Positions 4,874 through 28,163 of a stretch of 28,163 bases of DNA are shown in pieces (position 1 is the stretch's first letter; each line of letters begins with the position of its first letter). The position numbers and the translations under genes are program-made. The DNA is taken from IMG/VR virus record IMGVR_UViG_3300034341_000115, positions 1 through 28,163 of that record. One strand, 5' to 3'. A model generated the notes under the pieces. The model had not been told where the DNA came from, did not search any database, and worked only from the letters and a program-made list of their open reading frames with translations. Source of the stretch: a virus (Duplodnaviria > Caudoviricetes).

Positions 4874-4882
4874 CGATTACTC

Positions 4883-4917: not shown

Positions 4918-4946
4918 ATTATTACAATTCAAAAGAAAGATAGATA

Positions 4947-5528
4947 ATGGCAACTTTAACTTCTCAACTAGAATCCGTTAATGTGATGCTAGGTCACATT
5001 GGTGAGTCTCCTATCAATACACTCACAGGTTCTTTACCTATTAGTGCTACCACTGCTCTGGCTGCTTTGAATGAAGTAAGCAAAGAGGTTCAATCTGAGG
5101 GCTGGCACTTTAACTCTGAGAAGAATGTCACCTTATCTCCTGTCGATGGAAGCATCACTGTTCCTTCGGACGCTGTTCAAGTAGACACTGATGACAAGTC
5201 ATTGGACATCATACAAAGAGGCTCAGTCTTGTTTGACCGTGCCAACAACACAACAACATTTACAAAGAGTATTAAGGTAAGCCTACTTCGTTTACTTGAT
5301 TGGGACTCTTTACCAGAAGAAGCTCGTAGATACATTACACTACGTGCCTCTAGAATTTTCCAAGGACGGACTGTGGGTTCACGTGAGCTTGAAGCATTGA
5401 TAGCTCGTGATGAATACCAAGCTCGTGCTAGACTTGAAGAGTCTGATTATGGCAGCTCTGATAGAACTATATTTGACAACTACGATGTAGCGACAAGAAT
5501 TGGTGTGAACCGTAACTACGATATTTAA
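4947..5528 (+). CDS. Tail tubular protein A, T7 gp11-like
   Basis: LESVNVMLGHIGESPI, EVQSEGWHFN and LPEEARRYITLRASRIFQ motifs; follows capsid. Confidence 0.92.
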   Translation: MATLTSQLESVNVMLGHIGESPINTLTGSLPISATTALAALNEVSKEVQSEGWHFNSEKNVTLSPVDGSITVPSDAVQVDTDDKSLDIIQRGSVLFDRANNTTTFTKSIKVSLLRLLDWDSLPEEARRYITLRASRIFQGRTVGSRELEALIARDEYQARARLEESDYGSSDRTIFDNYDVATRIGVNRNYDI

Positions 5529-5530
5529 TA

Positions 5531-8230: not shown

Positions 8231-8705
8231 GAAAATCTATCAACAAGGTAAGATTTATATGTGTGAGTCCGTTGAGGACGACATCGAAAGTATCTATCCG
8301 TTCATGCGGCAAGTAGATAAGATTGAGTGTGAGTGTATGGGCTTCACTCCGAAGGAAGCTTTGGAGGTAGCTCTAGGTGCTGACACTATTACTTACACAG
8401 TGTTCGATCCGTACGATGTCCCGTTCTGTATGTTCGGAACTGGTTCCCTAAACTACGACGGCGATGGGTACATATGGATGCTGTCAACAGATACAGTGTT
8501 TGATTACAAATACGATTTTATAAGAGGCTCTAAGTTTGTAGTGAACACACTTATAAGCCCATACAAGCAAGCAAAGAACTTTGTTCACCAAGATAATAAA
8601 GCATCCATCACTTGGCTAAAGTGGTGTGGTGCGGAGATGGGGCAAGAGTATAAATTCTCTGACCACCCCTTCTATGAATTTACAATAACTAATAAGGAGA
8701 AATAA
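8223..8705 (+). CDS. T7 gp13-position protein (internal virion protein A / acetyltransferase-like)
   Basis: ATG at 8223 overlaps the end of tail tube B; MRQVDKIEC, IWML and NFVHQDNKASITWLKWCG pattern plus synteny. Confidence 0.7.
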   Translation: MRKKIYQQGKIYMCESVEDDIESIYPFMRQVDKIECECMGFTPKEALEVALGADTITYTVFDPYDVPFCMFGTGSLNYDGDGYIWMLSTDTVFDYKYDFIRGSKFVVNTLISPYKQAKNFVHQDNKASITWLKWCGAEMGQEYKFSDHPFYEFTITNKEK

Positions 8706-8709
8706 TAAT

Positions 8710-9297
8710 ATGTGTCCAGTAACAATAGGAGCAGCTTTTACCGCAGCAGGAGCAACAGCAGCTACGCAAGCTGCCGTAGGTAGTGCTATCCTTTCAACAG
8801 CAATGGGCGGTGCTACTTCTATACTCAGCATCACAGGACAGCAACAAGCAGCTAAGGCGCAGGCTCAAGCACAAGCAAACCAAACTAAAGCAGAGCAACA
8901 ACGTCTTCTCCAACAACAGTCTGCTGAACGTATCAATCAACGTTTCCAAGAAGAGCAGGTCGCTAATCAATTACAGAAGTCCGCTATTAAAGCACGAGAG
9001 GCACGAGCAACGGCACGAGTAAGTGCTGGTGAGGCAGGAGTATCTGGTCTCAGCGTTGATGCTCTAATGAACGACCTGACACGCAAGCAAGCTGTTTACA
9101 GTTACGGACTTACACGACAACTAGAACAATCCAACATCGCTACGGACTTGCGTATGCAAGACAACGCTCTAGGTTCTTCACAACGTCTTCTATCTATCAA
9201 TCAACCTATTAAGCAACCTGATTACCTTGGAGGACTCCTCAAGGGAGCATCTACAGGTCTTAATACTTACGGAACTCTCAGCTCTATTGAATCATAA
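8710..9297 (+). CDS. Internal virion protein, T7 gp14-like
   Basis: MCPV start, Ala/Gly/Gln-rich, AGEAGVSGLSVDAL motif; AAGGAG SD upstream. Confidence 0.85.
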   Translation: MCPVTIGAAFTAAGATAATQAAVGSAILSTAMGGATSILSITGQQQAAKAQAQAQANQTKAEQQRLLQQQSAERINQRFQEEQVANQLQKSAIKAREARATARVSAGEAGVSGLSVDALMNDLTRKQAVYSYGLTRQLEQSNIATDLRMQDNALGSSQRLLSINQPIKQPDYLGGLLKGASTGLNTYGTLSSIES

Positions 9298-11888: not shown

Positions 11889-11900
11889 CATTTAAAAATT

Positions 11901-14900: not shown

Positions 14901-17858
14901 AACAGAAAGTATTCTGTAGAGAGTTACAAGACACCGTACGTTAATCCTATCAGGTCAAGAGGTACACGGATGAACGAGAATCGTTTCTTCCAGAAGTCTG
15001 GTGAAAATAAATCTGGTATCACTGTAGAAAACAGAGGTGGTCAAATTGCTGTTGAAGGAACAGTCAAGGCTATCGGTGAAGTTGAAACAGCATACGACCT
15101 TGGTGAAGTATTAGCGAAGGCGGAGACTTCTGTTCTCGAAGAAATGGAAAGAACAGGAAGCATAGGCTTCTATGAAGATGGTACGCTACAAGGTTCTGAT
15201 GGACTTAAAGGTGGCGGTGTCGTTCAGGCTGTTGAACAAGCTCGACGAATGGCTGAGATGTCTGGTCAAAAGATTGACATAATTGAGTCAGAAGTCCGAG
15301 CAGCAGGTAATGATGCAGCAGCGTTGCGTCGAATTGCAGCTCGTATGTATACGGTAGAATCTATCGCCGTACAGCAAGGTGCTGACATCGTTGAGAAAGC
15401 TAAGAAGATTGCAGCGCAAAGTGCTGAAGCTACTGATGCAGACCGTGCAGAACTGATGGGAGACATCCAGAAGATGTTGAACCTAGTTGCTGCTGGCTCC
15501 AACCTCCGTCGAGGATTTGGTCAAGGTCTACAGTCAACACAGTTTGCTAGAACTAAGCTAAGTCTATCAGCGGCAGAGCGACGTTCTCAAGAGATTGTCA
15601 ACCAGTACATGGCAAGCAACAAGGGAGAGAAGAATAACTTTGATGTTCTAATTAACCGAATCATTCTTGCAGGCGGTGATCCTAAGAACACCTCAGCCAA
15701 GGACATGATTGACCAGATGCTTGGTGTCGTTAAAGCAGGGCGTGCTTCCGAAGGGGGCAAGTTCATGGAGATGGCACAGAACTGGTTCATCAACTCCCTA
15801 CTGTCTGGTCCTCGCACTATGATGAAGAATGGTATTGGTAACATGATTACTCAGACTCTTCTTCAAACTGAGCTAGCGATTGGTGGACTATCTGTTGACC
15901 CTGCTATCACTCGTATGGTGCTGAAAGAGATGTCAACCTTTGAGTCGTTCCGTGAGTCTATGAAGTATTTCTTAGATGTGTATTCGATGAAAGACCAACT
16001 GTTGGATATCGGACGTAACCCACTTGAGAACACAGCGAACACAGGTATTCCAAAATACTTTGATAACGCTGCTCCTGAAGAGACAATTAAGAACTCCATG
16101 AACTGGTTCAGTGAGAATGTTGTTAACATTCCAGCTAAGACCCTCATGGCGATGGACGAAGTCTTCAAGCAATCGATATTCCGTCAGAACGCAAAGATGG
16201 AATGGACACTGAAAGGTATGAAGTTAGGTATCAAAGACCCTGACGCATTGACCGAGTATGTCATGAGAGGTATGGACGCTGTCCTTGTGGATGGTGAACG
16301 TGCGTTCTCTGATGCTGGTGTGATGAAGTTTGCACAAGCATCCGTCAAGAAGATGGATGACGAACTTGTAGCTGCTGGTCAAAAGCCAATGACTCCTCAG
16401 AAGAGAGGTGCTGAAGTAAATCGTATCATTGGTGAAGAGACACAGAAACGTGCAGACATGCTTAAGTCGTACGAAGAAGGTGGTCTTGGATTAGAGAACA
16501 TCTCGGACATTGACAACGTAGCAGCTCGCTCCCTAGAGCAAGCACGTTACGGAACATTCACGAACGATGCTGGTGCTTTCGCAGACTTGGCGCAAGCGAT
16601 GACGCAGAAGGTTCCACCACTTCGTCTGATCTTTCCGTTCATTCGGACTCCAGTAAACATTCTGAAGTTCTCGTTTGATCGTGCATCAGGTGGTGCGATG
16701 GATGCAGGTCGTAGCGCACTTGCTATGATGCCTGATATGCCTATGCTGAAACGAACTCAAGATGAGTTGCGTATGAAGCTAGAGTCTCGTAACCCAATCG
16801 AGGTTGCACGAACACGAGGTAAGATTGCTACATCTGTTATGATCAATGGCACGTTGCTGTATATGATTATGGCAAACCGTGACTTCATTACAGGTGGTGG
16901 TCCAAAAGATATTGCACAGCGCAAGACTCTTGAAGCAACTGGATGGCAGAAGTATTCTCTTAAGTTTGGTAACAAGTACGCAAGCTTTGCAGGTCTTGAT
17001 CCGCTTGGAACACACTTCGGTATTCTTGTAGATATTGTTGAGCAGTTGGATGAACATGCCAGCCACAACACAACTACTGCCGAGCAGATGTTCGCAGCAG
17101 CTTCTATATCTCTATCACGTAACGTAACTGAGAAGTCTTATCTAGCAGGTCTTAAGTTCCTGACTGATGCTATCTCTGAGCCTGACCAAAAGATGGAACG
17201 AGCAATCCGAAACATTGCTGGTGGGTTTGTTCCCAATGTTCTGTATCAAGGTCAGTCCGTTATGGGTGACACAACTTCTAGAGAAGTTCGTAGCCTTAGT
17301 GATGCGTTCATGAAGAAGCTTCCGTTCGGTAACGGCAACTTAGACCCCAAGCGTAACATCTTAGGTGAGCCTGTTATTATGGAACAGTATCCAGTTGTTG
17401 GTCCGTTCAATCCTTCGTCTATCTCCACAAGAGACGGTGACGTAGTGTTTGAAGAGCTTGCACAACTTGAGCATGGCTTTACACAGACAAGCACAATGCT
17501 TGACCGTAGTATCGACATGACTGAGTTCGTTAACGACAAAGGACAGTCTGCTTACGATCGACGTTTAGAACTGCTTAACAAAACAAAGATTCGAGGAAGA
17601 ACTCTCCGACAAGAACTTGAGAAGTTAATCAAGAGTGGACGATACCAACGACTCTCTCCACTTACGGACGGAGCTTTGAAGAGTCCTCGAGTTAAACTTA
17701 TCAATAAAGTCCTGAGCAAGTACCGTTCACGCTCTCTGAGTTTGATGATGGAAGAGTTTCCAGAAATCGAACAAGAGTATACACGTATGCGCTCTATCAA
17801 CAAACAAGCACAGAGAGGTGCTTCAACCGAAACATTACAAGCATTGCTAGACGCATAA
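11901..17858 (+). CDS. Large internal virion (ejection) protein, T7 gp16-position, with extra domains including a HExxH metallopeptidase-like motif
   Basis: 1985 aa. C-terminal half has INSLLSGP.T, DEVFK, PFIRTPVNI and ITGGGP motifs seen in gp16-position proteins of T7-like phages; internal LLHEITHAA (14427-14453) plus EFLAE. Confidence 0.75.
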   Translation: MALGINTEEILNNLNDTNNEELIQNQKDPSMVKDILAAPFRGVEGAVQGVYNLADWATFDYLPDYDNRFLGKSETIAGSLVEGITQFVVPYGAISKGLSMAGKATKFAKPFMKVNKKGKEVLNWKGVLASEAATDFVAFDAQEERLSNLVQAFPSVANPITEYLAADGDDAELEGRFKNTLEGLGITGAMAGAFGLALKAHKKMKTKPEEAKKIGESMDFKQIRTVPVEDYSPAIKASKTAFTKSKRMDKNKSIPVNMMEKELTVYGEKGTAEELRWMGFSDWAQSKGKNRVTQKEVDEFLEENQFKYQLTERSGSSTNKVYERLGGQKGGDNYREFILTADEAKKGTKDYGVNQHYNRKEGDTLMHFRTTDRTDPDSGQRVLYVEEVQSDLMQGKRKALKVGAEDQGKLPLEDSYINTSMRMVMQLAAKEGYDKVSWSTPQQIASLYDATLDNIKLNSINEDGSRSYDITKQNGETVTKIVKNSEESENVFGKRASETLNARLTKAGDEIMDFEVKQDAKSYNQYKDKMVSAVNKVAKPFGGKVEMSRTDRTKEAASLEGKFESFIKQLKEDQPESDVLDRLMQFTREDLFADWRSSQVRRGGRWMSSEEALLKDFDFELDLSGLEDDMLEKFQYHEDFTELLDKLYSESWDFDTMLLLEDTLFDHFRKYKPEMRSKEFGQPQPSFSINLNDGMKKSVEEIRLWGLKTGDEAKLGGEIQDPALEQALQLPALRYLNDKEVIGMERDFSGNIAGETNAKFALERLAENGSTPQVKKLAAGMLELFGKDNDFLETTIRTILEDSDSFGSFGFKGNKQNIDLYSNRTQIADGEMARDAVFTEATLLHEITHAAQVRFIPKEISTISTLKGADYLAKVDELIASADTAPPLKRLLESYKTALDNAPEEFKGIMGSLNDATGFLDDAGMRSRIGEWYGLSNVDEFLAEAMSNTKFQNYLKSVKTGNTSLWDNIIQVLKDFLGVDAKGTLLGDTISNFADLVSKQNRKYSVESYKTPYVNPIRSRGTRMNENRFFQKSGENKSGITVENRGGQIAVEGTVKAIGEVETAYDLGEVLAKAETSVLEEMERTGSIGFYEDGTLQGSDGLKGGGVVQAVEQARRMAEMSGQKIDIIESEVRAAGNDAAALRRIAARMYTVESIAVQQGADIVEKAKKIAAQSAEATDADRAELMGDIQKMLNLVAAGSNLRRGFGQGLQSTQFARTKLSLSAAERRSQEIVNQYMASNKGEKNNFDVLINRIILAGGDPKNTSAKDMIDQMLGVVKAGRASEGGKFMEMAQNWFINSLLSGPRTMMKNGIGNMITQTLLQTELAIGGLSVDPAITRMVLKEMSTFESFRESMKYFLDVYSMKDQLLDIGRNPLENTANTGIPKYFDNAAPEETIKNSMNWFSENVVNIPAKTLMAMDEVFKQSIFRQNAKMEWTLKGMKLGIKDPDALTEYVMRGMDAVLVDGERAFSDAGVMKFAQASVKKMDDELVAAGQKPMTPQKRGAEVNRIIGEETQKRADMLKSYEEGGLGLENISDIDNVAARSLEQARYGTFTNDAGAFADLAQAMTQKVPPLRLIFPFIRTPVNILKFSFDRASGGAMDAGRSALAMMPDMPMLKRTQDELRMKLESRNPIEVARTRGKIATSVMINGTLLYMIMANRDFITGGGPKDIAQRKTLEATGWQKYSLKFGNKYASFAGLDPLGTHFGILVDIVEQLDEHASHNTTTAEQMFAAASISLSRNVTEKSYLAGLKFLTDAISEPDQKMERAIRNIAGGFVPNVLYQGQSVMGDTTSREVRSLSDAFMKKLPFGNGNLDPKRNILGEPVIMEQYPVVGPFNPSSISTRDGDVVFEELAQLEHGFTQTSTMLDRSIDMTEFVNDKGQSAYDRRLELLNKTKIRGRTLRQELEKLIKSGRYQRLSPLTDGALKSPRVKLINKVLSKYRSRSLSLMMEEFPEIEQEYTRMRSINKQAQRGASTETLQALLDA

Positions 17859-17886
17859 TATATTAACCCCCCTAACCAACTGTGAG

Positions 17887-18756
17887 ATGCCATTGTCATA
17901 TCAATCAATAACTAATCCAAGCTCAACATCCTTTACGGTAAGTTTTGAGTTTTTAAACTTAGCCGACATTAAAGCTGTCGGTAAACTTAACTCCGCCTCA
18001 GAATGGACAGAGCTTCCAGTAACTGATGCAGCAACAAGCAATGGTGTAACAACCGTCACTGTCGCTGATGCTGGCACTTACAGTTCTGCTGGTGAGGTTC
18101 GTATTTATCGAGCATCGTCTCAAGCAGCTTTGGTAGACTTCCAGAACGGTTCACGTTTATCGGAGAGTGACTTGGACACAGCTTACAGACAAGGCTTGTT
18201 TGCAGCTCAAGAAGTGCGTGAGAACGCTGCGGATAGCATCACAGCTGTTGGTCCACAAGGTCCAGCTGGTGCTGATGGTCAGGATGGTGCTGATGGTGTT
18301 GATGGTGCTGATGGAACAAGTGCTAGTAACACTCCTAATTTTCATGCCAATAAATCAAACACAACTATTCCAAATAATGTTGGGGAGGAAGTCATTTACT
18401 CGACTAAAGCTTGGGATACAGCAAATTTATATAGTAATACTACTGGTAAATTTACTGTAGGCGATACCACAACTGGATACTACTATATATATGCGGGTGT
18501 AAAATTTAATCAGCTTGGAGCTGATAGAATACAATTAAGACTTAAGTATTATAATGGAACCAGCACTATTACGTTTGCACTAACAGAAATGCAAATGGCT
18601 AATAATGGGTATGCCGCACCTCATATTGCAACTTTAGTCCCACTAGTAAATTCTGGTGATTATGTTTGTATAGAAGCATACCAAACCAGTGGCAGTTCTA
18701 AAAACTTAAGTAATGAAGTTGAAGGTAATTACTTTGGAGGATTCAAGCTCGCATAA
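17887..18756 (+). CDS. Tail fibre/adaptor, T7 gp17-like N-terminus, collagen-like repeat, C1q-like C-terminal domain
   Basis: VRIYR...VDFQNGSRLSESDLD attachment motif; GPQGPAGADGQDGADGVDGADG G-X-Y run; C-terminal GKFT...GYYYI...SGDYV...FGGFKL pattern. Confidence 0.8.
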   Translation: MPLSYQSITNPSSTSFTVSFEFLNLADIKAVGKLNSASEWTELPVTDAATSNGVTTVTVADAGTYSSAGEVRIYRASSQAALVDFQNGSRLSESDLDTAYRQGLFAAQEVRENAADSITAVGPQGPAGADGQDGADGVDGADGTSASNTPNFHANKSNTTIPNNVGEEVIYSTKAWDTANLYSNTTGKFTVGDTTTGYYYIYAGVKFNQLGADRIQLRLKYYNGTSTITFALTEMQMANNGYAAPHIATLVPLVNSGDYVCIEAYQTSGSSKNLSNEVEGNYFGGFKLA

Positions 18757-18760
18757 TATC

Positions 18761-18925
18761 ATGAACAACGATAGCCATCTTACACCTGCTGTAGCCATCG
18801 CTGGACTACTAGGTACAATAACTCTCGAACACGTGAACACGTTTGTTGCAATTATACTCGGACTTGTTTCACTCGCTTATGTCAGCGTTAAACTATGGAA
18901 GGAGATTAAGAATGGCAGGAAATAA
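18761..18925 (+). CDS. Putative holin (T7 gp17.5 position)
   Basis: 54 aa from ATG 18761 with hydrophobic segments and basic tail KLWKEIKNGRK; between fibre and terminase. Confidence 0.6.
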   Translation: MNNDSHLTPAVAIAGLLGTITLEHVNTFVAIILGLVSLAYVSVKLWKEIKNGRK

Positions 18926-19142
18926 AGAACTACTAGACGAGTTGATGGCTCTCACAATCGAAGAGCTACTGACCGTCATCAAGTCTGGAGAAGCAAATCC
19001 AGCAATCCTCAACGTAGCTAGGCAGCTACTCAAAGACAATCAAGTCACTGCCTCAGTCAAGGAAGACAGCCCTATGCAAAGTTTAGTAGAGGTGTTGCCG
19101 TTCCGTGAAGATGATGAACCAATCGCAGCCACAAATACCTAA
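18912..19142 (+). CDS. terS: Terminase small subunit, T7 gp18-like
   Basis: ATG 18912 after GGAG; IKSGEANPAILNVARQLLKDN and terminal LPF motif; directly upstream of terL. Confidence 0.85.
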   Translation: MAGNKELLDELMALTIEELLTVIKSGEANPAILNVARQLLKDNQVTASVKEDSPMQSLVEVLPFREDDEPIAATNT

Positions 19143-20796
19143 CGAACTCAAAGACTTTCGTAACTTCCTGTATTTCATTTGGCACTCGCTAGAACAGATC
19201 AAGCGTGACCCAACAGAGATACAGTACGATATCGCTGACTTCATGCAGCACGGTCCAAAGAGGGCTGTGGTACAGGGTTTTCGAGGAGTAGGCAAGTCTT
19301 GGATTTGTTCTGCGTTCGTAGTACACCAACTGTTCCTAGACCCAACTAAGAACATCCTTGTTGTCTCTGCATCGAAGACACGTTCTGATGACTTCTCTAC
19401 GTTCACGCTGAGACTTATTCATGACATCCCTATTCTGAGTTTCTTGAAGCCCAGTGCTGACCAGCGATTCTCTAAGGTGTCGTTTGATGTTGGACCGTCT
19501 GGAGCCTCTCACGCACCCTCTGTCAAATCATTAGGTATCACGTCACAGCTGACAGGTTCTCGTGCTGACATCATCATTGCTGATGACATTGAGGTAGCGA
19601 ACAACTCTGCTACACAGCAGATGAGAGACAAGCTATCAGAACAGGTAAAGGAGTTTGACGCTATTATCAAGCCCAACGATTCCTCTAGAATTATTGTTCT
19701 AGGAACTCCGCAATGTGAGGACAGTCTCTACAGTAAACTACAGGAACGAGGATTTACAACTAAGGTATGGTCTGCTGAGAAGGTAGACCCCAAGAAAGCG
19801 CTGAACACTTATGGAGACACACTGTCTACCCTCTGTATAGATGAAGATACCCAAGGCGATTCAGCCGAGCCTACACGTTTTACAGACTTTGATTTGCAGG
19901 AGCGAAAGATTTCTTACGGATCGGCTGGTTACGCTATGCAGTTCATGCTCAACCCCAACCTTGCTGACCTTGACCGCTATCCTCTTAAACTTGGCAACTT
20001 GGTTGTGCAAGATATTGACCCAGATGTTGCACCAGAGAAGCTAGTATGGGCGCAGACACCTGAGCTAGAATGGGAAAGACTTCCTAATGTAGGAATGAGA
20101 GGCGACCGCTTCTACAGACCGATGAAGATTCTAGGTGATATGATACCTTACACTGGGTCTGTTATGTCTATCGACCCCTCTGGTAGAGGTAAGGACGAGA
20201 CTGGCTACGCTGTAGTAAAGATGTGCAACGGAACTCTGTTTGTTCCAGAGGCTGGTGGACTCAAAGGCGGTTACGAAGAACCTACCTTGCTAGAACTAGT
20301 CCGTATCGCTAAGAGGAACAAGGTGAACGCTGTTATTACAGAGAGTAACTTCGGTGATGGTATGTTCACCCAGCTTATAACGCCCATATTTAGCCGAGAA
20401 TACCCCGTCACCCTTGAAGAGGTACGTCACCATCAACAGAAAGAGAAACGGATCATAGACACCCTTGAGCCTCTCCTAGCAGCTCACAGACTTGTTATAG
20501 CACCCTCTGTTATTGAGAACGACTACAAGACTGCACAAGGCTATCCAGCAGAACAACAACTCAGGTACATGATGATGTACCAGTTAACAAGATTAACAAG
20601 ACTCAGAGGAGCTTTAAGGAACGACGATAGACTTGATGCTCTTAGTATAGCTTGCAACTATTGGGTAGAACAAATGGCTCAAGATGCAGACATGAAGATT
20701 AAGGAACGAAGAGATGACCTAGCCTCTAAACAACTAGATGAATTCATGGATGCCTACTATAAGAGAACAACTAGATCACAGTCCTCTTGGATATAA
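19111..20796 (+). CDS. terL: Terminase large subunit, T7 gp19-like
   Basis: Walker A QGFRGVGKSW, TGSRADIIIADD Walker B, IDPSGRGKDETGY, ESNFGDGMF and DDRLDAL nuclease motifs. Exact start uncertain (GTG 19105, ATG 19111 or 19114). Confidence 0.96.
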   Translation: MMNQSQPQIPNELKDFRNFLYFIWHSLEQIKRDPTEIQYDIADFMQHGPKRAVVQGFRGVGKSWICSAFVVHQLFLDPTKNILVVSASKTRSDDFSTFTLRLIHDIPILSFLKPSADQRFSKVSFDVGPSGASHAPSVKSLGITSQLTGSRADIIIADDIEVANNSATQQMRDKLSEQVKEFDAIIKPNDSSRIIVLGTPQCEDSLYSKLQERGFTTKVWSAEKVDPKKALNTYGDTLSTLCIDEDTQGDSAEPTRFTDFDLQERKISYGSAGYAMQFMLNPNLADLDRYPLKLGNLVVQDIDPDVAPEKLVWAQTPELEWERLPNVGMRGDRFYRPMKILGDMIPYTGSVMSIDPSGRGKDETGYAVVKMCNGTLFVPEAGGLKGGYEEPTLLELVRIAKRNKVNAVITESNFGDGMFTQLITPIFSREYPVTLEEVRHHQQKEKRIIDTLEPLLAAHRLVIAPSVIENDYKTAQGYPAEQQLRYMMMYQLTRLTRLRGALRNDDRLDALSIACNYWVEQMAQDADMKIKERRDDLASKQLDEFMDAYYKRTTRSQSSWI

Positions 20797-21646: not shown

Positions 21647-21667
21647 TTGACAGGGTTGTTATAATGG
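21647..21667 (+). promoter_or_regulatory. Early promoter-like motif (extended -10 TGTTATAAT preceded closely by TTGACA)
   Basis: TTGACAGGGTTGTTATAATGG, about 80 bp upstream of the first early gene; 17/21 identical to 24732-24752. Confidence 0.55.
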
Positions 21668-21744: not shown

Positions 21745-22116
21745 ATGGAAGCTACCCAAAAACAATGGTTCTCAGACTCACCCTTCGCAGAAGAGTTCAC
21801 TCAAGTTATCTTCGATAACGAATGCAGTAAGGCAAGCGAAGACTTCGTCTCATACACTGTCGGTGAAACCGATGAATCACCTGATGAACTTACGTTCAAA
21901 TTTGAGGTTGAAGACGAGGGGCGAAGCTCTCTCACCTTGACTCTTACCGAAGGTACGGTGGTGATAAATCACCTTATCCTTGATAAGGGTAACTCAGAGG
22001 TTACACCTCTTATTTGGTCGCTTAACGAAGACATCGACATCTTCCTTGAAGATTTAACGGATAAGCACGGCATCGACCTTGTCGAAGCTAAGTCTCACGG
22101 CACTGAAATCAAATAA
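21745..22116 (+). CDS. First early gene; highly acidic 123-aa protein (possible DNA mimic)
   Basis: ATG in the recurring CACAATTATG context; by my count 29 D/E versus 8 K/R. Confidence 0.7.
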   Translation: MEATQKQWFSDSPFAEEFTQVIFDNECSKASEDFVSYTVGETDESPDELTFKFEVEDEGRSSLTLTLTEGTVVINHLILDKGNSEVTPLIWSLNEDIDIFLEDLTDKHGIDLVEAKSHGTEIK

Positions 22117-22167
22117 TCACCCACAGTTTACACTCACAATTCCAATCACACAAAACAACACATAATT

Positions 22168-22470
22168 ATGAAGCAAATGTACAAATACTACGAAGTAGTC
22201 GCTAACTGCCAAACAGTCCTCTACGGTTCTTACGATCGAGACGAAGCCAAGTTCGAGCTGGAAGCTATGCGTGACACCTACAAGGAAGACGGATACAAAG
22301 GCGTAAAGCTTCGCTGGAGAGCTACTGAAGAAGCTCCAGATGTTGGCATCTATGGAAAGGCTTTTAAGCCTAAGATGGCGAAGGTGATAGCTGGCTATAA
22401 ACTACCAAAGGTAAGCTCTAACGTCGAACAAATTCAACACCAACTTGGGGCATCTCTGTTACCTTGGTAA
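22168..22470 (+). CDS. Early hypothetical protein
   Basis: 100 aa, CA-rich leader ending AATTATG; stop abuts ribozyme 1. Confidence 0.75.
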   Translation: MKQMYKYYEVVANCQTVLYGSYDRDEAKFELEAMRDTYKEDGYKGVKLRWRATEEAPDVGIYGKAFKPKMAKVIAGYKLPKVSSNVEQIQHQLGASLLPW

Positions 22471-22530
22471 CTAAGGCGAAACGGTCTTTAGACCGTCTGT
22501 TGGTAACCTTCCAGCACTGATGAGCCTAGT
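22470..22530 (+). ncRNA. Hammerhead ribozyme, type II (copy 1)
   Basis: AGGC-GAA-ACGGTC[TTTA]GACCGT-C^-TGTTGG[TAACCTT]CCAGCA-CTGATGA-GCCT; complete core; predicted cleavage after C22497. Confidence 0.92.
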
Positions 22531-22603
22531 ACACACAGATCAATCAAGACAAAGTAAGGTAGCGACTCTCGCCAAAAATCACACAATCCAAATCCACACA
22601 ATT

Positions 22604-23341
22604 ATGACCACAGTAAACACGAAGTTACTTTCAGTAAATGCCGATGCTAAAACAAGCAAAGGCTCTAACGCTGGATACCTTACAGGTATTCTTTACCTAG
22701 CTCCTGCTAACGAAGCCTCACCGAAGGTTAATATTTGTCCGTTCGCTTCAGATGGGTGCAGGGATGTGTGCTTATACAGTGCAGGGCGAGGCAAGATGGA
22801 CTCCGTAGTCAAAGCTAGGATAGCCAAAACCTTAAGGTTTCTCGAAGATCCGAAGGAGTTCGTAGAACTATTGGCAATCGACATTCAGAAAATCGTCAAC
22901 AAAGCCGCCAAGGTAGGCATGACACCTGCGATTCGACTGAATGGCACATCTGACCTGCCTTGGGAGAAGCTCGGCGGTAAACTTGGCGTAGCCTTGATGA
23001 ATAGGTTTCCAAGCGTAGCTTTCTACGATTACACGAAGAATCCTAACCGTGCTATAGCTCATGCCGAAGGCAAGATGCCAGACAATTACCACATTACTTT
23101 CAGTAAATCTGAGTGTAACGATGAAGCAGTTGCCAAGGTGGTTGAGGCAGGTGGTAACGTAGCCGCAGTTTTCAGCACGAAGAAGGCGGATGAACTGCCT
23201 GCAGATTACAACGGTCGTGAAGTGGTTGACGGTGATAAGACTGACCTACGGTTTCTCGATAAAAGCGGCGTCTTCGTTGGTCTTCGAGCTAAGGGCGATG
23301 CACGTAGTGATCGTTCTGGCTTCACCATCATACTTGACTAA
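22604..23341 (+). CDS. Conserved phage protein with C-x6-C-x3-C motif (GP88-like / Fe-S-binding candidate)
   Basis: GILYLAP...ICPFASDGCRDVCL...RLNGTSD...FYDYTK...DGDKTDLRFLD...GLRAKG. True start is probably ATG 22604; the ORF-track start at 22520 lies inside the ribozyme core. Confidence 0.7.
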   Translation: MTTVNTKLLSVNADAKTSKGSNAGYLTGILYLAPANEASPKVNICPFASDGCRDVCLYSAGRGKMDSVVKARIAKTLRFLEDPKEFVELLAIDIQKIVNKAAKVGMTPAIRLNGTSDLPWEKLGGKLGVALMNRFPSVAFYDYTKNPNRAIAHAEGKMPDNYHITFSKSECNDEAVAKVVEAGGNVAAVFSTKKADELPADYNGREVVDGDKTDLRFLDKSGVFVGLRAKGDARSDRSGFTIILD

Positions 23342-23394
23342 GGCGAAACGGTCGTAAGACCGTCTGGCGGTAACCTTCCGTCACTGACGAGCCT
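23337..23394 (+). ncRNA. Hammerhead ribozyme, type II (copy 2)
   Basis: AGGC-GAA-ACGGTC[GTAA]GACCGT-C^-TGGCGG[TAACCTT]CCGTCA-CTGACGA-GCCT; predicted cleavage after C23364. Confidence 0.92.
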
Positions 23395-23400
23395 GTTAGA

Positions 23401-23431
23401 TAATCACACAATCCAATCCTACACAACTATG
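23401..23431 (+). repeat. Leader repeat B, copy 1
   Basis: TAATCACACAATCCAATCCTACACAACTATG, 30/31 identical to 23645-23675; looser copies near 22577-22606 and 22131-22170. Confidence 0.9.
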
Positions 23432-23647
23432 ACACCTACAATATACAAACTCGCTTACGTTAACAACGTCATTAACAGAGAAGGCTACGTCCTTTTCCAA
23501 AACGACGGCAATGTAGACGTAGTCTATGAAACATTTGAGACGGAAGCAGACCTTCTTAGGTATGTAGGCAGATACTTCGAGAAGGTCGGCGAGATAACAG
23601 ACTATGGTCTGTATATTCGTAAAAGCTTTCACGATCTCAACAAATAA
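23429..23647 (+). CDS. Early hypothetical protein
   Basis: 72 aa flanked by two copies of leader repeat B. Confidence 0.7.
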   Translation: MTPTIYKLAYVNNVINREGYVLFQNDGNVDVVYETFETEADLLRYVGRYFEKVGEITDYGLYIRKSFHDLNK

Positions 23648-23675
23648 TCACACAATCCAATCCTACACAATTATG
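23645..23675 (+). repeat. Leader repeat B, copy 2
   Basis: TAATCACACAATCCAATCCTACACAATTATG, spanning exactly from stop codon to next start codon. Confidence 0.9.
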
Positions 23676-24080
23676 CAATCAGTAAAAAATCGCACTATAG
23701 ACAAGTCCAAACCTGTAAAGGTTTACTGGAATCTACACCGCAACTGCTATTCCGTTCAACAGAACGGTCTGGTAGTGGGTCATACTGACCATATCGAGCT
23801 TCGTGATGTTACCTTTAAGGTAAGCGAGGCAGGTCGGCAACGTGTCTTGAAAGAGCGCAGAAAGAATGTGCATGCTTTCGTTACAGGCTACTTGGACGAC
23901 TTGGATGCTATCCGCATCTGGTATGTAAAGATTGTTTACAATCCTTACAAGTATGACAGCTTTCGGCTCTGGGTTGACCCAACTGTGACTGTAAAGTCAT
24001 CCGAAGCAGTAGTTCTACGAACAAGGGACGGCAAAGGCTGTATCCTTTCGGAGCGTAAGATAGGCACACACTGTGCATAG
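23673..24080 (+). CDS. Conserved phage hypothetical protein
   Basis: ATG 23673 at end of repeat B; VYWNLH...FKVSEAGRQRVLKERRKNVHAFV.G...YNPYK motif pattern seen in diverse phages. Confidence 0.75.
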   Translation: MQSVKNRTIDKSKPVKVYWNLHRNCYSVQQNGLVVGHTDHIELRDVTFKVSEAGRQRVLKERRKNVHAFVTGYLDDLDAIRIWYVKIVYNPYKYDSFRLWVDPTVTVKSSEAVVLRTRDGKGCILSERKIGTHCA

Positions 24081-24137
24081 TCTGCGTAGTACAATCAAGA
24101 CAAAAGTAAAGTGGCGAAACTGCCGACAAAAATTATG
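24077..24137 (+). repeat. Intergenic repeat A, copy 1
   Basis: ATAGTCTGCGTAGTACAATCAAGACAAAAGTAAAGTGGCGAAACTGCCGACAAAAATTATG, from TAG stop to ATG. Confidence 0.9.
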
Positions 24138-24311
24138 CAAATGCGAAACACCATCACACTCCGCAAGCGAGAGGTCTATGGCAACGAACTGTTCTACGTA
24201 GTAGACAAGGATCAAGCCAAGGCTATCTCGATTCTAACGGGACAAAAGACGGTTACGGAACGTAACATCGGAGCTTTGAAGCTTCTCGGATACACCATCA
24301 CATACGTATAG
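24135..24311 (+). CDS. Small early hypothetical protein
   Basis: 58 aa between two copies of repeat A; EVYGNELFY...LTGQKT motif. Confidence 0.7.
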   Translation: MQMRNTITLRKREVYGNELFYVVDKDQAKAISILTGQKTVTERNIGALKLLGYTITYV

Positions 24312-24367
24312 TCTGCGTAGTACAATCAAGACAAAGTAAAGTGGCAATTCATGCCGACAAAATTATG
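24308..24367 (+). repeat. Intergenic repeat A, copy 2
   Basis: ATAGTCTGCGTAGTACAATCAAGACAAAGTAAAGTGGCAATTCATGCCGACAAAATTATG; partial third copy at 22541-22577. Confidence 0.9.
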
Positions 24368-24568
24368 GAAAAAGAAGACGCACTAATCCTAGCCTCACGT
24401 TACTACCTATGTGAGGAACTACCCGAAACATACGTTGACTTCGATGCCGACAAATTAGATCAGTTCCTTGAGTCTAACGCATGGCAACCGTTCGAGTTCT
24501 ACCCTGCAGTAGACATATGGGATTTGATCAACGACCTTGCTGACGAATTTGTTCGAGTAAGCAAGTAA
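24365..24568 (+). CDS. Small acidic early protein
   Basis: 67 aa from ATG 24365; about 17 D/E versus 5 K/R. Confidence 0.7.
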   Translation: MEKEDALILASRYYLCEELPETYVDFDADKLDQFLESNAWQPFEFYPAVDIWDLINDLADEFVRVSK

Positions 24569-24595
24569 CATTACACAACCACATATCATAACATC

Positions 24596-24775
24596 ATGCT
24601 CAATCAAATCCTATCTACCTGCAAGCAACTCAATCGCTTGCTCAAGACTAAAGACCCGTATCATTCCGACCTTGTGGCACAGCTACTTACGAAGATTGAA
24701 AACCAAATCCCATCCGAAAACCCTCAAGGGGTTGACAAGGATGCTATAGTGGAAGCTCTCAACAAAAACGACTAA
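24596..24775 (+). CDS. Small early hypothetical protein (not in ORF track)
   Basis: 59 aa MLNQILSTCKQLNRLL...EALNKND after a CA-rich leader; its GAC-TAA end is the 5' end of ribozyme 3, as for ribozyme 2. Confidence 0.6.
   Translation: MLNQILSTCKQLNRLLKTKDPYHSDLVAQLLTKIENQIPSENPQGVDKDAIVEALNKND
24732..24752 (+). promoter_or_regulatory. Second copy of early promoter-like motif
   Basis: TTGACAAGGATGCTATAGTGG (extended -10 TGCTATAGT), just upstream of ribozyme 3. Confidence 0.5.
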
Positions 24776-24831
24776 GGCGAAACAAGGCGCAATGCCTTGT
24801 CTGCTGGTAACCTTCCAGCACTGACGAGCCT
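24771..24831 (+). ncRNA. Hammerhead ribozyme, type II (copy 3)
   Basis: AGGC-GAA-ACAAGGC[GCAAT]GCCTTGT-C^-TGCTGG[TAACCTT]CCAGCA-CTGACGA-GCCT; predicted cleavage after C24801. Confidence 0.92.
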
Positions 24832-24866
24832 GTCAGCTTATACATAATCAGATACATATACTGCAC

Positions 24867-25853
24867 ATGAAACAAGACACATACATCGTAAACACACAAC
24901 AAAACGGCTGGTCACAAAAGATCACAGACACTATCAACTCTGTTGATGATATCGGACTCAATTGGGATGTTCAGAAGACACCTATGGTGGCACTACTCGA
25001 AGGCAAGTATCCTTTGCCTATCAATTCACACGTCAGCATCAATCGCTCTGACTCTAACGAGTCCATCGGAGTGGTCGGCTCTGGCTATGAGCCTATCCAA
25101 AACTCCCGTATCTGGGAAGCTTTGCACCAGTCACTGGAAGGCACGAAGCACGAAGTTGTAGGTGGTGGATACACTCACAACGGTGGTCGAGTGTTCGTTC
25201 AGACCAAGGTCTCAGACAAAGACTTCACCGTCAACGGAGATGCCTTCGATAACTACGTTACATTCTACAGCTCTCACGATGGTAGCTCTGCCTTCGAGAT
25301 GTTCGACACTAGTGTCCGTATGATTTGCCAGAACACTTTCCGTCTGGCTAAAAAGGAGGGAGGCAGAGCCTTCAAGCTCCGTGTTCGACACACTCGGAAC
25401 GCTTCAGTGCGATTCGAGAACGTCATGCAACACCTTGAGTCTATGTTCGACAACCGTAGGGTTGCTTATGAGAAGCTTAACCGCACTACCGAAACTCCTA
25501 TGGCTTATCCAGAGATGATTGCTTGGGCAACTTCGTTCTTCAACAAGTCCAACAAGCTGTCTACTGTAAGTAGTAACAAGGCTCACGAGGCTCGTCGGCT
25601 TGCCATCGGTGGTATAGGCAACAACGGTCGGACATCCTACGACATGTTCAACGGAGTCACGGAGCTACTCACTCACGGCGACCGTCAAACATCCAAGGAT
25701 CGCTCCGCAATCTGGCGTTCGTCAGAGCTAGGAGCAGGTGCTGTACAGAAGGCATCTGCCTTGGAGCAGTTGCACAATATCAACAACCGCACAGCTCACA
25801 TCAACAGAGGTCGTGAGCTTATCAACACTGGCGAGACTTTGCTGTCTGCATAA
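24867..25853 (+). CDS. DUF932/DUF945-family phage/plasmid protein
   Basis: GLNWDV, GVVGSGYEPIQN, SHDGSSA, VRMICQNT, RHT and YDMFNGVTELLTH motifs. Confidence 0.8.
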   Translation: MKQDTYIVNTQQNGWSQKITDTINSVDDIGLNWDVQKTPMVALLEGKYPLPINSHVSINRSDSNESIGVVGSGYEPIQNSRIWEALHQSLEGTKHEVVGGGYTHNGGRVFVQTKVSDKDFTVNGDAFDNYVTFYSSHDGSSAFEMFDTSVRMICQNTFRLAKKEGGRAFKLRVRHTRNASVRFENVMQHLESMFDNRRVAYEKLNRTTETPMAYPEMIAWATSFFNKSNKLSTVSSNKAHEARRLAIGGIGNNGRTSYDMFNGVTELLTHGDRQTSKDRSAIWRSSELGAGAVQKASALEQLHNINNRTAHINRGRELINTGETLLSA

Positions 25854-25870
25854 CTGAAACCCCTACTCCC

Positions 25871-25906
25871 AAATGTCCTGAGCATGACAATAAACTGCTC
25901 ACATTT
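25871..25906 (+). promoter_or_regulatory. H-type RNA pseudoknot / alternative hairpin in gene leader
   Basis: S1 TGTC/GACA, L1 C, S2 TGAGCA/TGCTCA, L3 ATAAAC; ends 9 nt before ATG 25911. Confidence 0.55.
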
Positions 25907-25910
25907 TATT

Positions 25911-26096
25911 ATGGATAACACAACACAACACACAATAGACACAGCCTTTCAACACAAGCAAACCGTAGCGAAGCTCAAGCACGAGCTGTTAGCTAAGGAT
26001 GACGAGATCACACAACTAAAATACGATCTTGAAGCAGAGCGTCACGTGAGTGCGCAGTTGGAAGCACACATAAGCGAATTCCAATCACAATTCTAA
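25911..26096 (+). CDS. Small coiled-coil early protein
   Basis: 61 aa from ATTATG at 25911; heptad pattern VAKLKHELLAKDDEITQLKYDLEAE. Confidence 0.65.
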   Translation: MDNTTQHTIDTAFQHKQTVAKLKHELLAKDDEITQLKYDLEAERHVSAQLEAHISEFQSQF

Positions 26097-26116
26097 GCAA
26101 CCACAATAACACACAT

Positions 26117-26398
26117 ATGAAATACGTAATCAAACTACCTAAGCAAGCAGGCTACCTGTGTCATGCTGGAACTAATCGTGTCGTTATATACGACAACGCA
26201 ACAAGCTACCCTATTGGGATGGATGTGATGGCGTGTAACGGCGAGCGTAAGGCTCTCGAAGGGGACACCCTTCATACTGTCTTTGTGTCGGGCTGGTATG
26301 ACAACAACATCGACGAGATTGAATGTCCTATTAAATCATTACATGATTTCAAAGACTTCTTTAGCGAGTATGACGAGCCTACCGTATACCTACCCTAG
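26117..26398 (+). CDS. Early hypothetical protein
   Basis: 93 aa with CA-rich leader; followed by a terminator. Confidence 0.7.
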   Translation: MKYVIKLPKQAGYLCHAGTNRVVIYDNATSYPIGMDVMACNGERKALEGDTLHTVFVSGWYDNNIDEIECPIKSLHDFKDFFSEYDEPTVYLP

Positions 26399-26408: not shown

Positions 26409-26447
26409 AGCCAGCCGTCACTTAACAAATGGCGGTTGGCTTTTTTA
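26409..26447 (+). terminator. Intrinsic terminator ending the early gene array
   Basis: AGCCAGCCGTCA-cttaacaaa-TGGCGGTTGGCT followed by a T-tract. Confidence 0.85.
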
Positions 26448-26509: not shown

Positions 26510-26869
26510 ATGCACGAGCCTAAACCCCAATGTCCTCAATTTCGTAGCATTCTTGAACAGTATTTAAGTATTATTTACTACACAAAAGACAAAAAGACAA
26601 ACCTTGAACCTCTCCTCAAGAATAAAAGGAATCATGACATTGCCATCTTATCATTGGTTTACCTTAAGCAACCGATCAATATGACTGCCCTTAAAAATCT
26701 TTTGCTTTGTTCTTCTAGAACATTTGATGCTTGTGTAATCAAGCTACATGAACTTGGTTTCCTTATTATATCTGACAGTAAAGAGGACAAAAGAACCAAG
26801 CTTTTACGCATAACACCGCACACTTACGCTAGTCTTAGTAAATTCATACACGGTATTTACAACTTTTAA
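26510..26869 (+). CDS. MarR-like winged-helix transcriptional regulator
   Basis: KLHELGFLIISDSKEDKRTKLLRIT matches the MarR wing motif (L...G......D.R...L.LT); adjacent to the integrase. Confidence 0.7.
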   Translation: MHEPKPQCPQFRSILEQYLSIIYYTKDKKTNLEPLLKNKRNHDIAILSLVYLKQPINMTALKNLLLCSSRTFDACVIKLHELGFLIISDSKEDKRTKLLRITPHTYASLSKFIHGIYNF

Positions 26870-26969: not shown

Positions 26970-28061
26970 ATGAAGATAAGAAGGAGAGGCAAGAGCTGGC
27001 AGGCTGATGCACACATAGAAGGCAAGCGAGTTCGCAGACTATTCAAGAGTCTGGCGGATGCCGAAGACTTTGTTACTAACCTAGAGCATCGCTCTAAACT
27101 AGGACTGAAAGTCACGCACATACTCAGCACGAAGAATGCGAGCCTAACCCTGAAGGGTCTAACCGATACTGTTTATGAAGCAGTATGGAAGGACACAGCT
27201 AACGGCATCAATGCGCTACGCAACGTAGAGTTAATCCAAAAGATTGTTGGCACTAACATTAGGGTTGAGGAAATCAACACGATAGTGATTGATGAAATCA
27301 TCCAGACCTTAAAGAACCAAGGCAACAGCAACGGCACAATCAACAACAAGATGTCTGCTCTCATGGTATGCCTGAAGTATGCACACGACAGGGACTGGAT
27401 ACAGAACGTGCCTAAGTTCAAACGATACAAGGCATCCGAAGGTAGGCTACGATACTTCTCGCCCGAAGAGGAGGAGATGATCATCTCTACCAACAAAAGG
27501 CTAGGACAGGAAGACTTCGCTAGCTTCGTGAAGGTTCTCATAGATACGGGATTGCGTACGGGTGAGCTTTGCCGTGTTCAATACAAGGACGTCGTGAAGG
27601 AATCTAACAGGTGGAAGATGTATGTATGGGCGAGAGGACACGACTACAGAACTAAGAACGGAGAGATGCGTATCGTTCCACTATCGGATGAGGTCGTAGA
27701 GATTATGACTAACAAGTGGAATGCGCTTGACATAAACTCTACCCATCCTACTATAGATAATAGTATTACTTCTATTGCACACCGTAATAGTAAAGTTTTT
27801 AACTACACTAAATCTAACATACGCACACAATGGAACAACGTCCGTGACATACTGGGCTACATGGATGACGAGGAGTTTGTTCCTCACCTGTGTAGACACA
27901 CCTGCGCTACTCGCTTAGTGCAAGCAGGAGTCCCACTACTCGCAGTCAAAGACTGGATGGGACACAAGTCTATACAAGTCACGATGCGCTACGCCAAGCT
28001 AGCACCTGACGCTGTCTTTGACGCTCTCGATACACTCAACAAGAAACGAAAAAACAAATAA
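26970..28061 (+). CDS. int: Tyrosine recombinase / phage integrase
   Basis: DTGLRTGEL, TKNG, PHLCRHTCATRL, MGH and RY catalytic R-K-H-R-H-Y set; N-terminal arm-binding-like domain. Confidence 0.93.
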   Translation: MKIRRRGKSWQADAHIEGKRVRRLFKSLADAEDFVTNLEHRSKLGLKVTHILSTKNASLTLKGLTDTVYEAVWKDTANGINALRNVELIQKIVGTNIRVEEINTIVIDEIIQTLKNQGNSNGTINNKMSALMVCLKYAHDRDWIQNVPKFKRYKASEGRLRYFSPEEEEMIISTNKRLGQEDFASFVKVLIDTGLRTGELCRVQYKDVVKESNRWKMYVWARGHDYRTKNGEMRIVPLSDEVVEIMTNKWNALDINSTHPTIDNSITSIAHRNSKVFNYTKSNIRTQWNNVRDILGYMDDEEFVPHLCRHTCATRLVQAGVPLLAVKDWMGHKSIQVTMRYAKLAPDAVFDALDTLNKKRKNK

Positions 28062-28088
28062 ACACACCAGAAATAAACTGAGAGTTGC

Positions 28089-28118
28089 TGTCACAAGTTG
28101 ACCCACTAAATTGTGACA
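28089..28118. repeat. Inverted repeat downstream of integrase (candidate att/arm or operator site)
   Basis: TGTCACAA-14 bp-TTGTGACA perfect inverted repeat. Confidence 0.5.
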
Positions 28119-28163
28119 ATATAAACTCACATAAGCGCACACCCTAGAAGTGAACCGAGAGTT

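Follow-up and report, generated by a model that had tools for sequence, protein, structure and literature searches.

Gene content of the early region

The window (the whole stretch of DNA analysed, 28,163 nt, IMG/VR record IMGVR_UViG_3300034341_000115) carries virion genes that form a T7-type module, and these bear out the original prediction of a T7-like phage. An integrase gene is also present, and an RNA polymerase gene is absent. In relatives, tRNA-Leu(CAA) and the gene of a T7-type RNA polymerase come after the integrase; the polymerase lies downstream of the integrase in both near-complete relatives searched and in two of five related records overall, which supports the label 'early region' for this block. 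Of the two marks of an Autographiviridae-type phage, a T7-type virion module and a single-subunit RNA polymerase, the first is seen in the window and the second would lie past its end. The closest named phages share 52-64% identity in the terminase. As for the host, a search with the integrase in genome contigs gave one weak, unrelated match among 28 candidates, and the names of homologs and clusters held no host clue. The features of the early region and its surroundings are the following.

21647..21665, + strand, promoter-like element opening the early region (TTGACA and TATAAT 7 nt apart, the latter preceded by TG; extended -10 type)
21745..22116, + strand, first early ORF, 123 aa, no family match
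22168..22470, + strand, 100-aa ORF upstream of HH1
22468..22530, + strand, HH1, type II hammerhead (RF02276, 33.8 bits; predicted cut after C22497)
22526..22575, + strand, repeat B, copy 1
22604..23341, + strand, GP88-family gene, 245 aa (PF17338, phrog_1617)
23335..23399, + strand, HH2, type II hammerhead (RF02276, 28.3 bits; predicted cut after C23364)
23429..24775, + strand, five small ORFs between HH2 and HH3 (72 aa; L5 gp82-like, PF25735; 58, 67 and 59 aa)
24077..24130, + strand, repeat B, copy 2, starting with the upstream stop codon
24308..24360, + strand, repeat B, copy 3, starting with the upstream stop codon
24732..24750, + strand, second promoter-like element, within the last part of the 59-aa gene and 28 nt ahead of HH3's GAAA
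24770..24836, + strand, HH3, type II hammerhead (RF02276, 32.8 bits; predicted cut after C24801)
24867..25853, + strand, DUF932/TIGR03299 gene, 328 aa, downstream of HH3
26409..26447, + strand, terminator-like 12-bp hairpin with a 9-nt loop and a U run (z = -5.3)
26970..28061, + strand, tyrosine integrase

Both promoter-like elements are candidate promoters judging from their sequence. Their spacing occurs twice in the window; the first element is kept in the related loci compared, and the second precedes the HH3 junction in 16 of 16 loci (window included), with or without HH3 itself. At the other end, the terminator-like hairpin is likely to mark the end of the early transcript. This hairpin is not the same in all relatives, and one scan missed it, its loop being 9 nt long.

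Repeat B is a second junction module, made of a conserved primary sequence and a small variable hairpin. It has no Rfam match, and RNAalifold on 47 copies found no consensus pairs, with the variable hairpin poorly aligned. HH1 runs directly into copy 1, and the two appear to have been fused at a short shared sequence. With regard to an anti-defence role for the flanked genes, PADLOC returned one weak match among 12 proteins (E 0.0028), which was disregarded.

Three type II hammerheads between the genes

Three hammerheads with a full core and an open stem II had been predicted in this region, and all three were confirmed on the + strand. Each has CUGANGA, GAAA and NUH at a three-way junction, with GAAA starting at 22478, 23345 and 24779 (HH1, HH2 and HH3), the cleavage C of GUC at 22497, 23364 and 24801, and CUGANGA starting at 22517, 23384 and 24821. 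Stem I and stem III each end in a loop and stem II is open, the arrangement that Perreault 2011 defines as type II. Stem I has 6 bp under the same 7-nt loop, UAACCUU, in the three copies; stem III, besides the core A-U, has 5, 5 and 7 bp; stem II consists of 4 bp (AGGC/GCCU), a bulge, and then 3-4 more pairs.

A search of the whole window with Rfam model RF02276 (Hammerhead_II) at E<=1 recovered exactly these three sites, with E values of 0.0022, 0.06 and 0.0038 and alignments over the full model (1-66). Each score is below the gathering score of 37 bits, which is also unreached by every copy in 15 related loci; because of this, standard annotation overlooks the subfamily. Chance is a poor source of such a cluster: a descriptor search gave 3 matches in the window, whereas 100 first-order Markov sequences as long as the window gave none in 97 cases and one in 3, and never more than one.

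Conservation and distribution among relatives

The survey of related phages suggested by the original prediction yielded 40 hammerhead copies over 22 of 25 contigs, all on the coding strand and between genes, patchily spread over equivalent junctions. The pattern matches number 1, 2 and 2 in three near-complete relatives and fall in the early region, except for one (G002:36170), a candidate by pattern.

Among 32 distinct copies, 94.7% of the stem cells are paired, and two-sided changes occur at 15 of the 19 pairs. Shuffled alignments never reached these levels (0/500) on four of five measures, and slid alignments were 30-45% paired. By stem, pairing is 100% in stem I, 98.9% in stem III and 32/32 in inner stem II. 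The invariant positions are the core except position 7, the U of loop 1 and the A flanking stem II. Core and loop I had both been described as invariant. The core is indeed conserved in relatives, except for position 7, where HH1 has U and the other two have C; loop I is the same in HH1-HH3, but in relatives only its first U and penultimate pyrimidine are fixed. Since covariation of the stems is strong and the core is invariant, it is very likely that catalysis is under selection, as had been proposed: stem changes are compensated while the core and the putative tertiary-contact bases stay fixed.

How would such a ribozyme hold its stems together? All 32 regular copies (from 33, one irregular copy being set aside) carry at the sequence level the UNmYN/RNnA motif, that is, a loop 1 with a 5' U and a penultimate pyrimidine, and a loop 2 whose 3' A faces a purine; the A lies directly 5' of stem II with the purine opposite (32/32). 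A viroid-like contact between loop and internal loop is thus predicted to replace the usual pseudoknot. The pseudoknot subtype, defined by at least 4 pairs between loop I and a 3' tail, was considered and set aside, as only HH2 among the 32 regular copies could form 4 pairs.

The distribution is more irregular than the structure. In the window, hammerheads occupy only 3 of the 10 junctions of the early region. The HH3 junction has a ribozyme in 9 of 15 related loci and none in 6; the gene end of the 100-aa ORF comes with a ribozyme in four loci and without it in L063 and L068; and the early regions of L068 and L069 have no hammerhead anywhere. As in other clustered phage hammerheads, several ribozymes on the coding strand flank single genes or short blocks, and the flanked genes are variable. 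By these comparisons the hammerheads are accessory, and they probably act as optional and swappable junction modules.

Farther afield, the 19 more distant GP88 loci L035-L053 and a 17-kb stretch of phage S45-C18 yielded no ribozyme, and blastn queries with HH3 and with the promoter region gave no match to named phages. A search for other ribozyme classes at hammerhead-free junctions of eight loci (Rfam, E<=1) returned two tRNAs and one chance match only, and was insensitive enough to miss even the hammerheads present there. About 700 viral stretches fit a strict canonical hammerhead pattern.

Comparison with known systems

The general layout has a precedent, and the novelty implied by the original prediction does not stand. 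Perreault 2011 (PMC3088659) reports double and triple hammerheads that flank genes or gene blocks in prophages, and proposes that they cut long phage transcripts into operon- or gene-length mRNAs; three tandem arrays were cleaved in vitro, and a triple array also in E. coli. Of the consensus hammerheads tested there, 14/18 were active and 4/18 inactive. The present ribozymes resemble those arrays in being type II, in standing in twos and threes between small phage genes near an integrase, in the variability of the flanked genes and in the role proposed for them. They differ from that consensus in lacking the pseudoknot of loop I with the 3' tail (at least 4 pairs in only 1/32), in having a bulged stem II of 4 bp where 2 bp is common, and in carrying a tail that can pair with the core. 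The phage is different as well, since it is T7-like and its relatives encode their own polymerase. The loop-bulge contact may already be tallied for type II in Figure S5 of that paper, which gives contacts by type.

Dufour describes UNmYN/RNnA as the tertiary-contact motif of fast natural hammerheads. The heptaloop, its 5' U and penultimate pyrimidine, the A 5' of stem II and the purine opposite are all shared here, whereas the setting is not: the present copies are a type II permutation between genes in phage DNA, with no rolling-circle replication.

In T7, RNase III cuts the early message at five places, which optimizes translation (PMC4858673). The likeness would lie in a polycistronic message made by the host polymerase and cut between genes by processing that is helpful and not essential. 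In contrast, the chemistry predicted here is protein-free and leaves 5'-OH and cyclic-phosphate ends, at 3 sites in 10 junctions that are gained and lost among close relatives. An inverted-repeat list of the window held no long RNase III-type hairpins at the junctions. A hammerhead study in T7-like phages was not among the matches listed by a literature search.

A last parallel is RiboJ, engineered from sTRSV, for which mRNA increases of about twofold and protein increases of two- to tenfold are given in E. coli (Clifton et al. 2018, PMC6206723). There too a hammerhead followed by a second hairpin sits between promoter and start site, and HH3 lies just past a promoter-like element; unlike in RiboJ, the second hairpin is predicted to be built from the catalytic core itself.

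Proposed role in the early transcript

Our favored reading, which we consider probable, is that HH1-HH3 self-cleave the early transcript into pieces that set lifetime and translation separately for each gene block, so that the ribozymes tune early expression and are not a required processing system. The predicted pieces measure about 0.8, 0.87, 1.44 and 1.65 kb and carry 2, 1, 5 and 3 genes; the GP88-family gene is the only one predicted to be freed alone (867 nt), and the five small ORFs would travel together on 1437 nt.

The process would start with host RNA polymerase transcribing from the element at 21647 and perhaps also from the one at 24732. Stem II would then close and loop I dock on its bulge. 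The cut after GUC would leave an upstream piece ending in stem III with a 2',3'-cyclic phosphate and a downstream piece opening with the 5'-OH stem I hairpin. At HH2 and HH3, the downstream piece would refold with its tail paired to the core, and ribosomes halting at the stop codon in stem II would pull the pieces apart, so that resealing is avoided. Finally, the hairpin-capped piece would present an A/C-rich leader to ribosomes, much as the engineered RiboJ insulator does.

The ends thus predicted agree with the hairpin-ended products expected earlier, the downstream piece starting with one or two flush hairpins. The further claim of processing without host enzymes was overstated: seven of the ten junctions are ribozyme-free, the pieces are mostly multi-gene, relatives have no ribozyme at the same junctions, and host nucleases may take part as well. 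With 60-120 nt of flank, models of secondary-structure energy alone do not favor the active fold at HH2 and HH3, giving stem II a probability of 0.00-0.04. Cleavage is not predicted to free the downstream start site, as the predicted accessibility of the start region was unchanged at all three sites (0.83, 0.93 and 0.64 before and after), which leaves a benefit to translation putative.

Stop codons and the core-pairing tail

Another intriguing point is the position of the upstream stop codons. The one at HH1 (22468-22470) finishes 7 nt short of GAAA; at HH2, the GP88-family gene's stop codon (23339-23341) makes up the bulge of stem II together with its fourth pair; and the one at HH3 (24773-24775) lies within stem II. 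In 35 of 40 copies the stop codon lies in or against stem II, within 7 nt of GAAA, and in 25 of 40 it ends exactly 3 nt before, across three gene families and with both TAA and TAG. On the 3' side, the HH2 tail (23395-23399) is complementary to core bases 23384-23388 and the HH3 tail (24832-24836) to 24821-24825. Of 33 copies, 26 have such a tail; among 1624 control positions the pairing turned up 27 times. For these 26 copies, folding predictions give the tail-core hairpin a probability of 0.92-1.0 once the RNA is cut; before the cut, the range is 0.02-1.0 if the precursor is free and 0.94-1.0 if its 5' strand is blocked. The hairpin and the active stem II are mutually exclusive. Core position 7 and the first tail base pair as C-G in 19 copies, U-A in 11 and U-G in 1, with 1 other, although this is one column pair that reflects some two or three lineages, and in 6 of the U-A copies no further pair forms.

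Does the hairpin act after the cut, or before it? In the models it is predicted to block re-ligation, and possibly lets the terminating ribosome gate cleavage. The second option extends the favored reading: a ribosome at the upstream stop would cover the 5' strand of stem II, the tail would pair with the core and park the ribozyme inactive, and the cleavage rate would report upstream translation. Taken to its end, this would be a self-latching, protein-free and one-way cutter, with the stop codon in the contact-making bulge and a conserved tail that grabs the core once the strand is cut away or covered, coupling early translation to mRNA segmentation. The stop-codon spacing, the exclusive folds and the covariation of position 7 speak for it. 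However, the stop-codon overlap is weakened as a lineage-specific device, as 101 of 143 unrelated phage type II hammerheads share it, with offsets spread over 1-7 nt; because packing is so general, and because other junction modules here also begin with a stop, compaction accounts for it. HH1 and six other copies have no tail hairpin, the covariation is thin in lineages, and a plain product ratchet accounts for the hairpin by itself. We regard both the gating and the full latch as rather unlikely. The literature retrieved on stop-codon overlap and phage ribozyme function comprised only Perreault 2011, Weinberg 2019 and theta ribozymes.

Would cleavage perhaps silence the downstream block instead? 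As an early shut-off or damping device, it could serve an integrase-bearing phage that might need damped early genes; HH3 sits just past a promoter-like element, and glmS RNA is degraded by cellular RNases once it has cleaved itself (Weinberg 2019). By analogy with RiboJ in E. coli, hairpin ends that resist decay would fit the favored reading, as opposed to the glmS outcome: the downstream piece opens with one or two flush hairpins, the layout that raised RiboJ expression. Perreault 2011 moreover maps the 5' end of a phage transcript to no more than 3 nt from where a hammerhead cuts, which means that such products can accumulate. A damping role is a still less probable account.

Alternatively, the main importance of the motifs could be as DNA repeats by which small early genes are shuffled, cleavage being incidental or decayed. 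Gene order between junction modules varies among relatives, remnants of the 5' arm persist without a ribozyme in L001 and L030, and HH1 seems to be joined to repeat B. Nevertheless, the compensated stem changes and fixed core and contact bases point to selection for catalysis by the RNA, and diverging stems hinder recombination; we read shuffling rather as a side effect, and give this explanation very little weight. Least probable of all is re-ligation of the pieces between ribozymes into circular mRNAs (867 and 1437 nt), whose two ends can rebuild a hammerhead: a 4-bp cross stem II is kept in 16/18 adjacent pairs, both window pairs included, and a compatibility test did not reject it, but compatibility follows from common descent, several relatives carry a single ribozyme, after the cut the core is predicted to be buried in the tail hairpin, and Perreault 2011 states that circular and spliced products were sought and none found (data not shown).

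Implications

Self-cleavage that tunes the early message is the reading we retain as probable, in a field where Weinberg 2019 still calls it unresolved what hammerheads do in the DNA of bacteria and phages. The general arrangement is already published (Perreault 2011) and common in viral DNA; what is added here is the viroid-like contact motif, the stop-codon packing, the promoter-like element before HH3 and the core-pairing tail. The tail-core hairpin might lend itself to ribozyme insulators of compact design, and it offers a handle on whether natural phage ribozymes are ratcheted or translation-gated. Lastly, these phages come with their own natural controls: close relatives have the same junctions with and without the ribozyme, and their T7-like layout is directly comparable to RNase III processing.

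Hammerheads in the window

By a structural descriptor, the window holds exactly three type II hammerheads, at the places where the original prediction had put its three motifs, and that observation is confirmed. Run on 100 Markov sequences of window length, the descriptor gave no match in 97 and one in 3.

Predicted cleavage sites
HH1, after C22497, before the GP88-family gene
HH2, after C23364
HH3, after C24801, before the DUF932 gene

With the Rfam Hammerhead_II model (RF02276), the outcome was divided: all three give a full-model match, but their scores (33.8, 28.3 and 32.8 bits for HH1, HH2 and HH3) lie below the gathering score of 37. The likely reason is that the usual type II pseudoknot, which can form in only one of the 32 regular copies in the window and its relatives, is replaced by bases of the UNmYN/RNnA-type contact. 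These are present, at the sequence level, in all 32, and the contact is described as a feature of fast natural hammerheads (Dufour, PMC2632901).

As for the relatives, one locus per contig was taken from 25 contigs, the window included; 19 distant GP88 loci, in which no hammerhead was found, were excluded. The survey gave 40 hammerheads in 22 of the 25 contigs. Of the three remaining contigs, one starts inside DUF932, and two (L068 and L069) span the region and hold none. Among 32 distinct copies, 94.7% of cells are paired and two-sided changes occur at 15 of 19 pairs, against 30–45% paired when the same alignment is slid; the copies share descent, so that shuffle counts are not to be read as probabilities. 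Apart from position 7, the core does not vary, and neither do the opening U of loop I and the A adjoining stem II. Covarying stems, with invariant core and contact bases, uphold the proposal of selection on activity, and from them we infer self-cleavage; Perreault et al. 2011 tested 18 candidates that fit the consensus and found 14 active (PMC3088659). For HH2 and HH3, stem II is not favoured by secondary-structure models in longer context. In HH3 of the closest relative (L025:8182-8255), one extra base is inserted in stem I; the copy may be decaying, or the extra base may be a sequencing error. Taken together, the three hammerheads are real and very probably active.

Genome context and predicted transcript pieces

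Main features of the window
853-20796, T7-type portal, scaffold, capsid, tail tube, nozzle, internal virion proteins and two terminase subunits
21745-26398, after a non-coding stretch, eleven small same-strand ORFs, including the GP88, L5 gp82-like and DUF932 families
26409, terminator-like hairpin after the eleven ORFs, followed by a 119-aa ORF, the integrase and the window end

Five related records were searched, and in the two near-complete ones a T7-type RNA polymerase lies 3' of the integrase; the ORF cluster, lying before the polymerase, is therefore read as the early region. Many marine phages of this family carry an integrase (PMC12361551). Ribozymes occupy three of the ten early junctions, so that the predicted pieces hold 2, 1, 5 and 3 genes, with lengths of ∼817, 867, 1437 and 1645 nt; for the two outer pieces the length rests on assumed transcript ends.

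The 119-aa ORF (26510-26869) gives weak MarR-type HTH matches (E 0.008–0.014, far below cut-offs) and is replaced or missing in most relatives. An inverted repeat directly 3' of the integrase stop (28085-28120) is possibly an integrase arm site. Between integrase and polymerase, five relatives carry a tRNA-Leu(CAA) (L001:5817-5902, L003:7226-7311, L026:8915-9000, L029:11555-11640, L030:8559-8644), likely the attachment site and a handle for a host search; the integrase scan, homolog and cluster names, and named-phage comparison did not recover the host's identity. A sigma-70 consensus (12/12, 16-nt spacer) on the minus strand at 20927-20900 faces the terminase gene, antisense to the late genes.

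Optional modules at the junctions

Sequence comparison of the junctions indicates that the ribozymes are optional modules. The survey of equivalent junctions, proposed with the original prediction, gave a mixed picture: before DUF932 the ribozyme is present in nine of 15 loci and absent from six (L067, L071 and L072, truncated or split, were excluded). On the DUF932 tree, well-supported branches force at least three changes of presence or absence, and presence is no more clustered than in shuffles (137 of 500 as low). The gene before HH1 has the same end whether the ribozyme follows (four loci) or is missing (two loci), only the 5' arm remains in L001 and L030, and gene order between modules varies among genomes. 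One relative has DUF932 as two separate ORFs (L001:2727-3711).

The other gaps hold two further modules, an A/C-rich leader and repeat B. A Shine-Dalgarno match of three or more bases is absent at nine of the 11 early starts scored, two of these nine being at slightly wrong coordinates.

Repeat B in the window
22526-22575, first copy
24077-24130, second copy
24308-24360, third copy

Repeat B, with 47 distinct copies in related loci, also occurs in ribozyme-free relatives. It usually starts with the upstream stop codon and contains a conserved A-rich stretch, an imperfect palindrome that can lie either way round, and a small hairpin whose sequence varies. The 47 copies gave no consensus fold and no Rfam match; repeat B could be a protein-binding site, a promoter or a nuclease signal. 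A third conserved element lies 3' of it in relatives (L026:2885-2930, L028:5945-5990 and others), not in the window: a short hairpin whose loop and upstream bases could form a small pseudoknot.

Tail, stop codon and mechanism

The five bases 3' of stem II (the tail) match the core CUGAY by complementarity over 4–5 pairs in 26 of 33 distinct copies, as against 27 of 1624 control positions. Core position 7 covaries with the first tail base, a single column pair in few lineages. The tail hairpin and the active fold are mutually exclusive and predicted to compete in the precursor; once the 5' strand is cut away or blocked, the hairpin is predicted to dominate (0.92–1.0). HH2 and HH3 have it and HH1 does not; HH1 appears to be fused to repeat B.

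What would these elements do together? Our model, which we consider probable, is that cleavage by the ribozymes would divide the early transcript into blocks with hairpin ends, that the tail hairpin, together with terminating ribosomes, would keep the cut from being reversed, and that the stability of each block would depend on flush hairpins at its 5' end. The arrangement is already known: Perreault et al. 2011 describe hundreds of bacterial hammerheads near integrases, with multiple copies flanking prophage genes or gene blocks, as in the window; three tandem arrays cleaved in vitro and a triple array in E. coli, and cutting of long phage transcripts into operon- or gene-length mRNAs was proposed (PMC3088659). 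In T7, RNase III cuts early RNA at five sites, which is helpful, not essential (PMC4858673). The variant features here are the loop/bulge contact, the sub-threshold Rfam score and the core-pairing tail, and the 2011 supplements may list the contact type or subfamily. The strict canonical type II pattern occurs in an estimated ∼700 viral stretches, with many copies on some contigs; one IMG/VR contig of an unrelated phage (L147 and L148, overlapping loci with four each) has up to eight matches in ∼3.4 kb.

The boldest remaining reading, a self-latching ribozyme whose cleavage is gated by translation, would extend this model and is unlikely. Of 40 copies, 25 have the upstream stop ending 3 nt before GAAA, whether it is TAA or TAG and in three gene families, and in 35 the distance is at most 7 nt; a terminating ribosome, judging from its footprint size, would unfold stem II. 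However, of 143 distinct canonical type II hammerheads on unrelated viral contigs (150 matches, less three without flank and four duplicates), 101 also have the stop within 1–7 nt, so that compaction suffices to explain its position. Among the papers listed by literature searches, none deals with hammerheads in T7-like phages or with such stop-codon overlap. That cleavage triggers decay, by analogy with glmS (Weinberg 2019, PMC6765202), seems less probable still. A role only at the DNA level, in shuffling, is improbable, and circular mRNAs are the least credible outcome: 16 of 18 adjacent ribozyme pairs are compatible with circles, but Perreault et al. 2011 detected none in their own study (PMC3088659).

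Beyond the block-cutting model, a promoter-like element bears on HH3.

TTGACA-7 nt-TATAAT-like element, TG before the second hexamer
21647-21665, head of the region
24732-24750, 28 nt before HH3

All 16 loci examined keep the second copy, though the encoded residues differ. The 7-nt spacing is odd for sigma-70, and the element may combine an extended -10 promoter with an operator half-site, or belong to a promoter type specific to the host. Should the second copy act as a promoter, HH3 would remove a short leader as well, like the ribozyme insulator RiboJ (PMC6206723).
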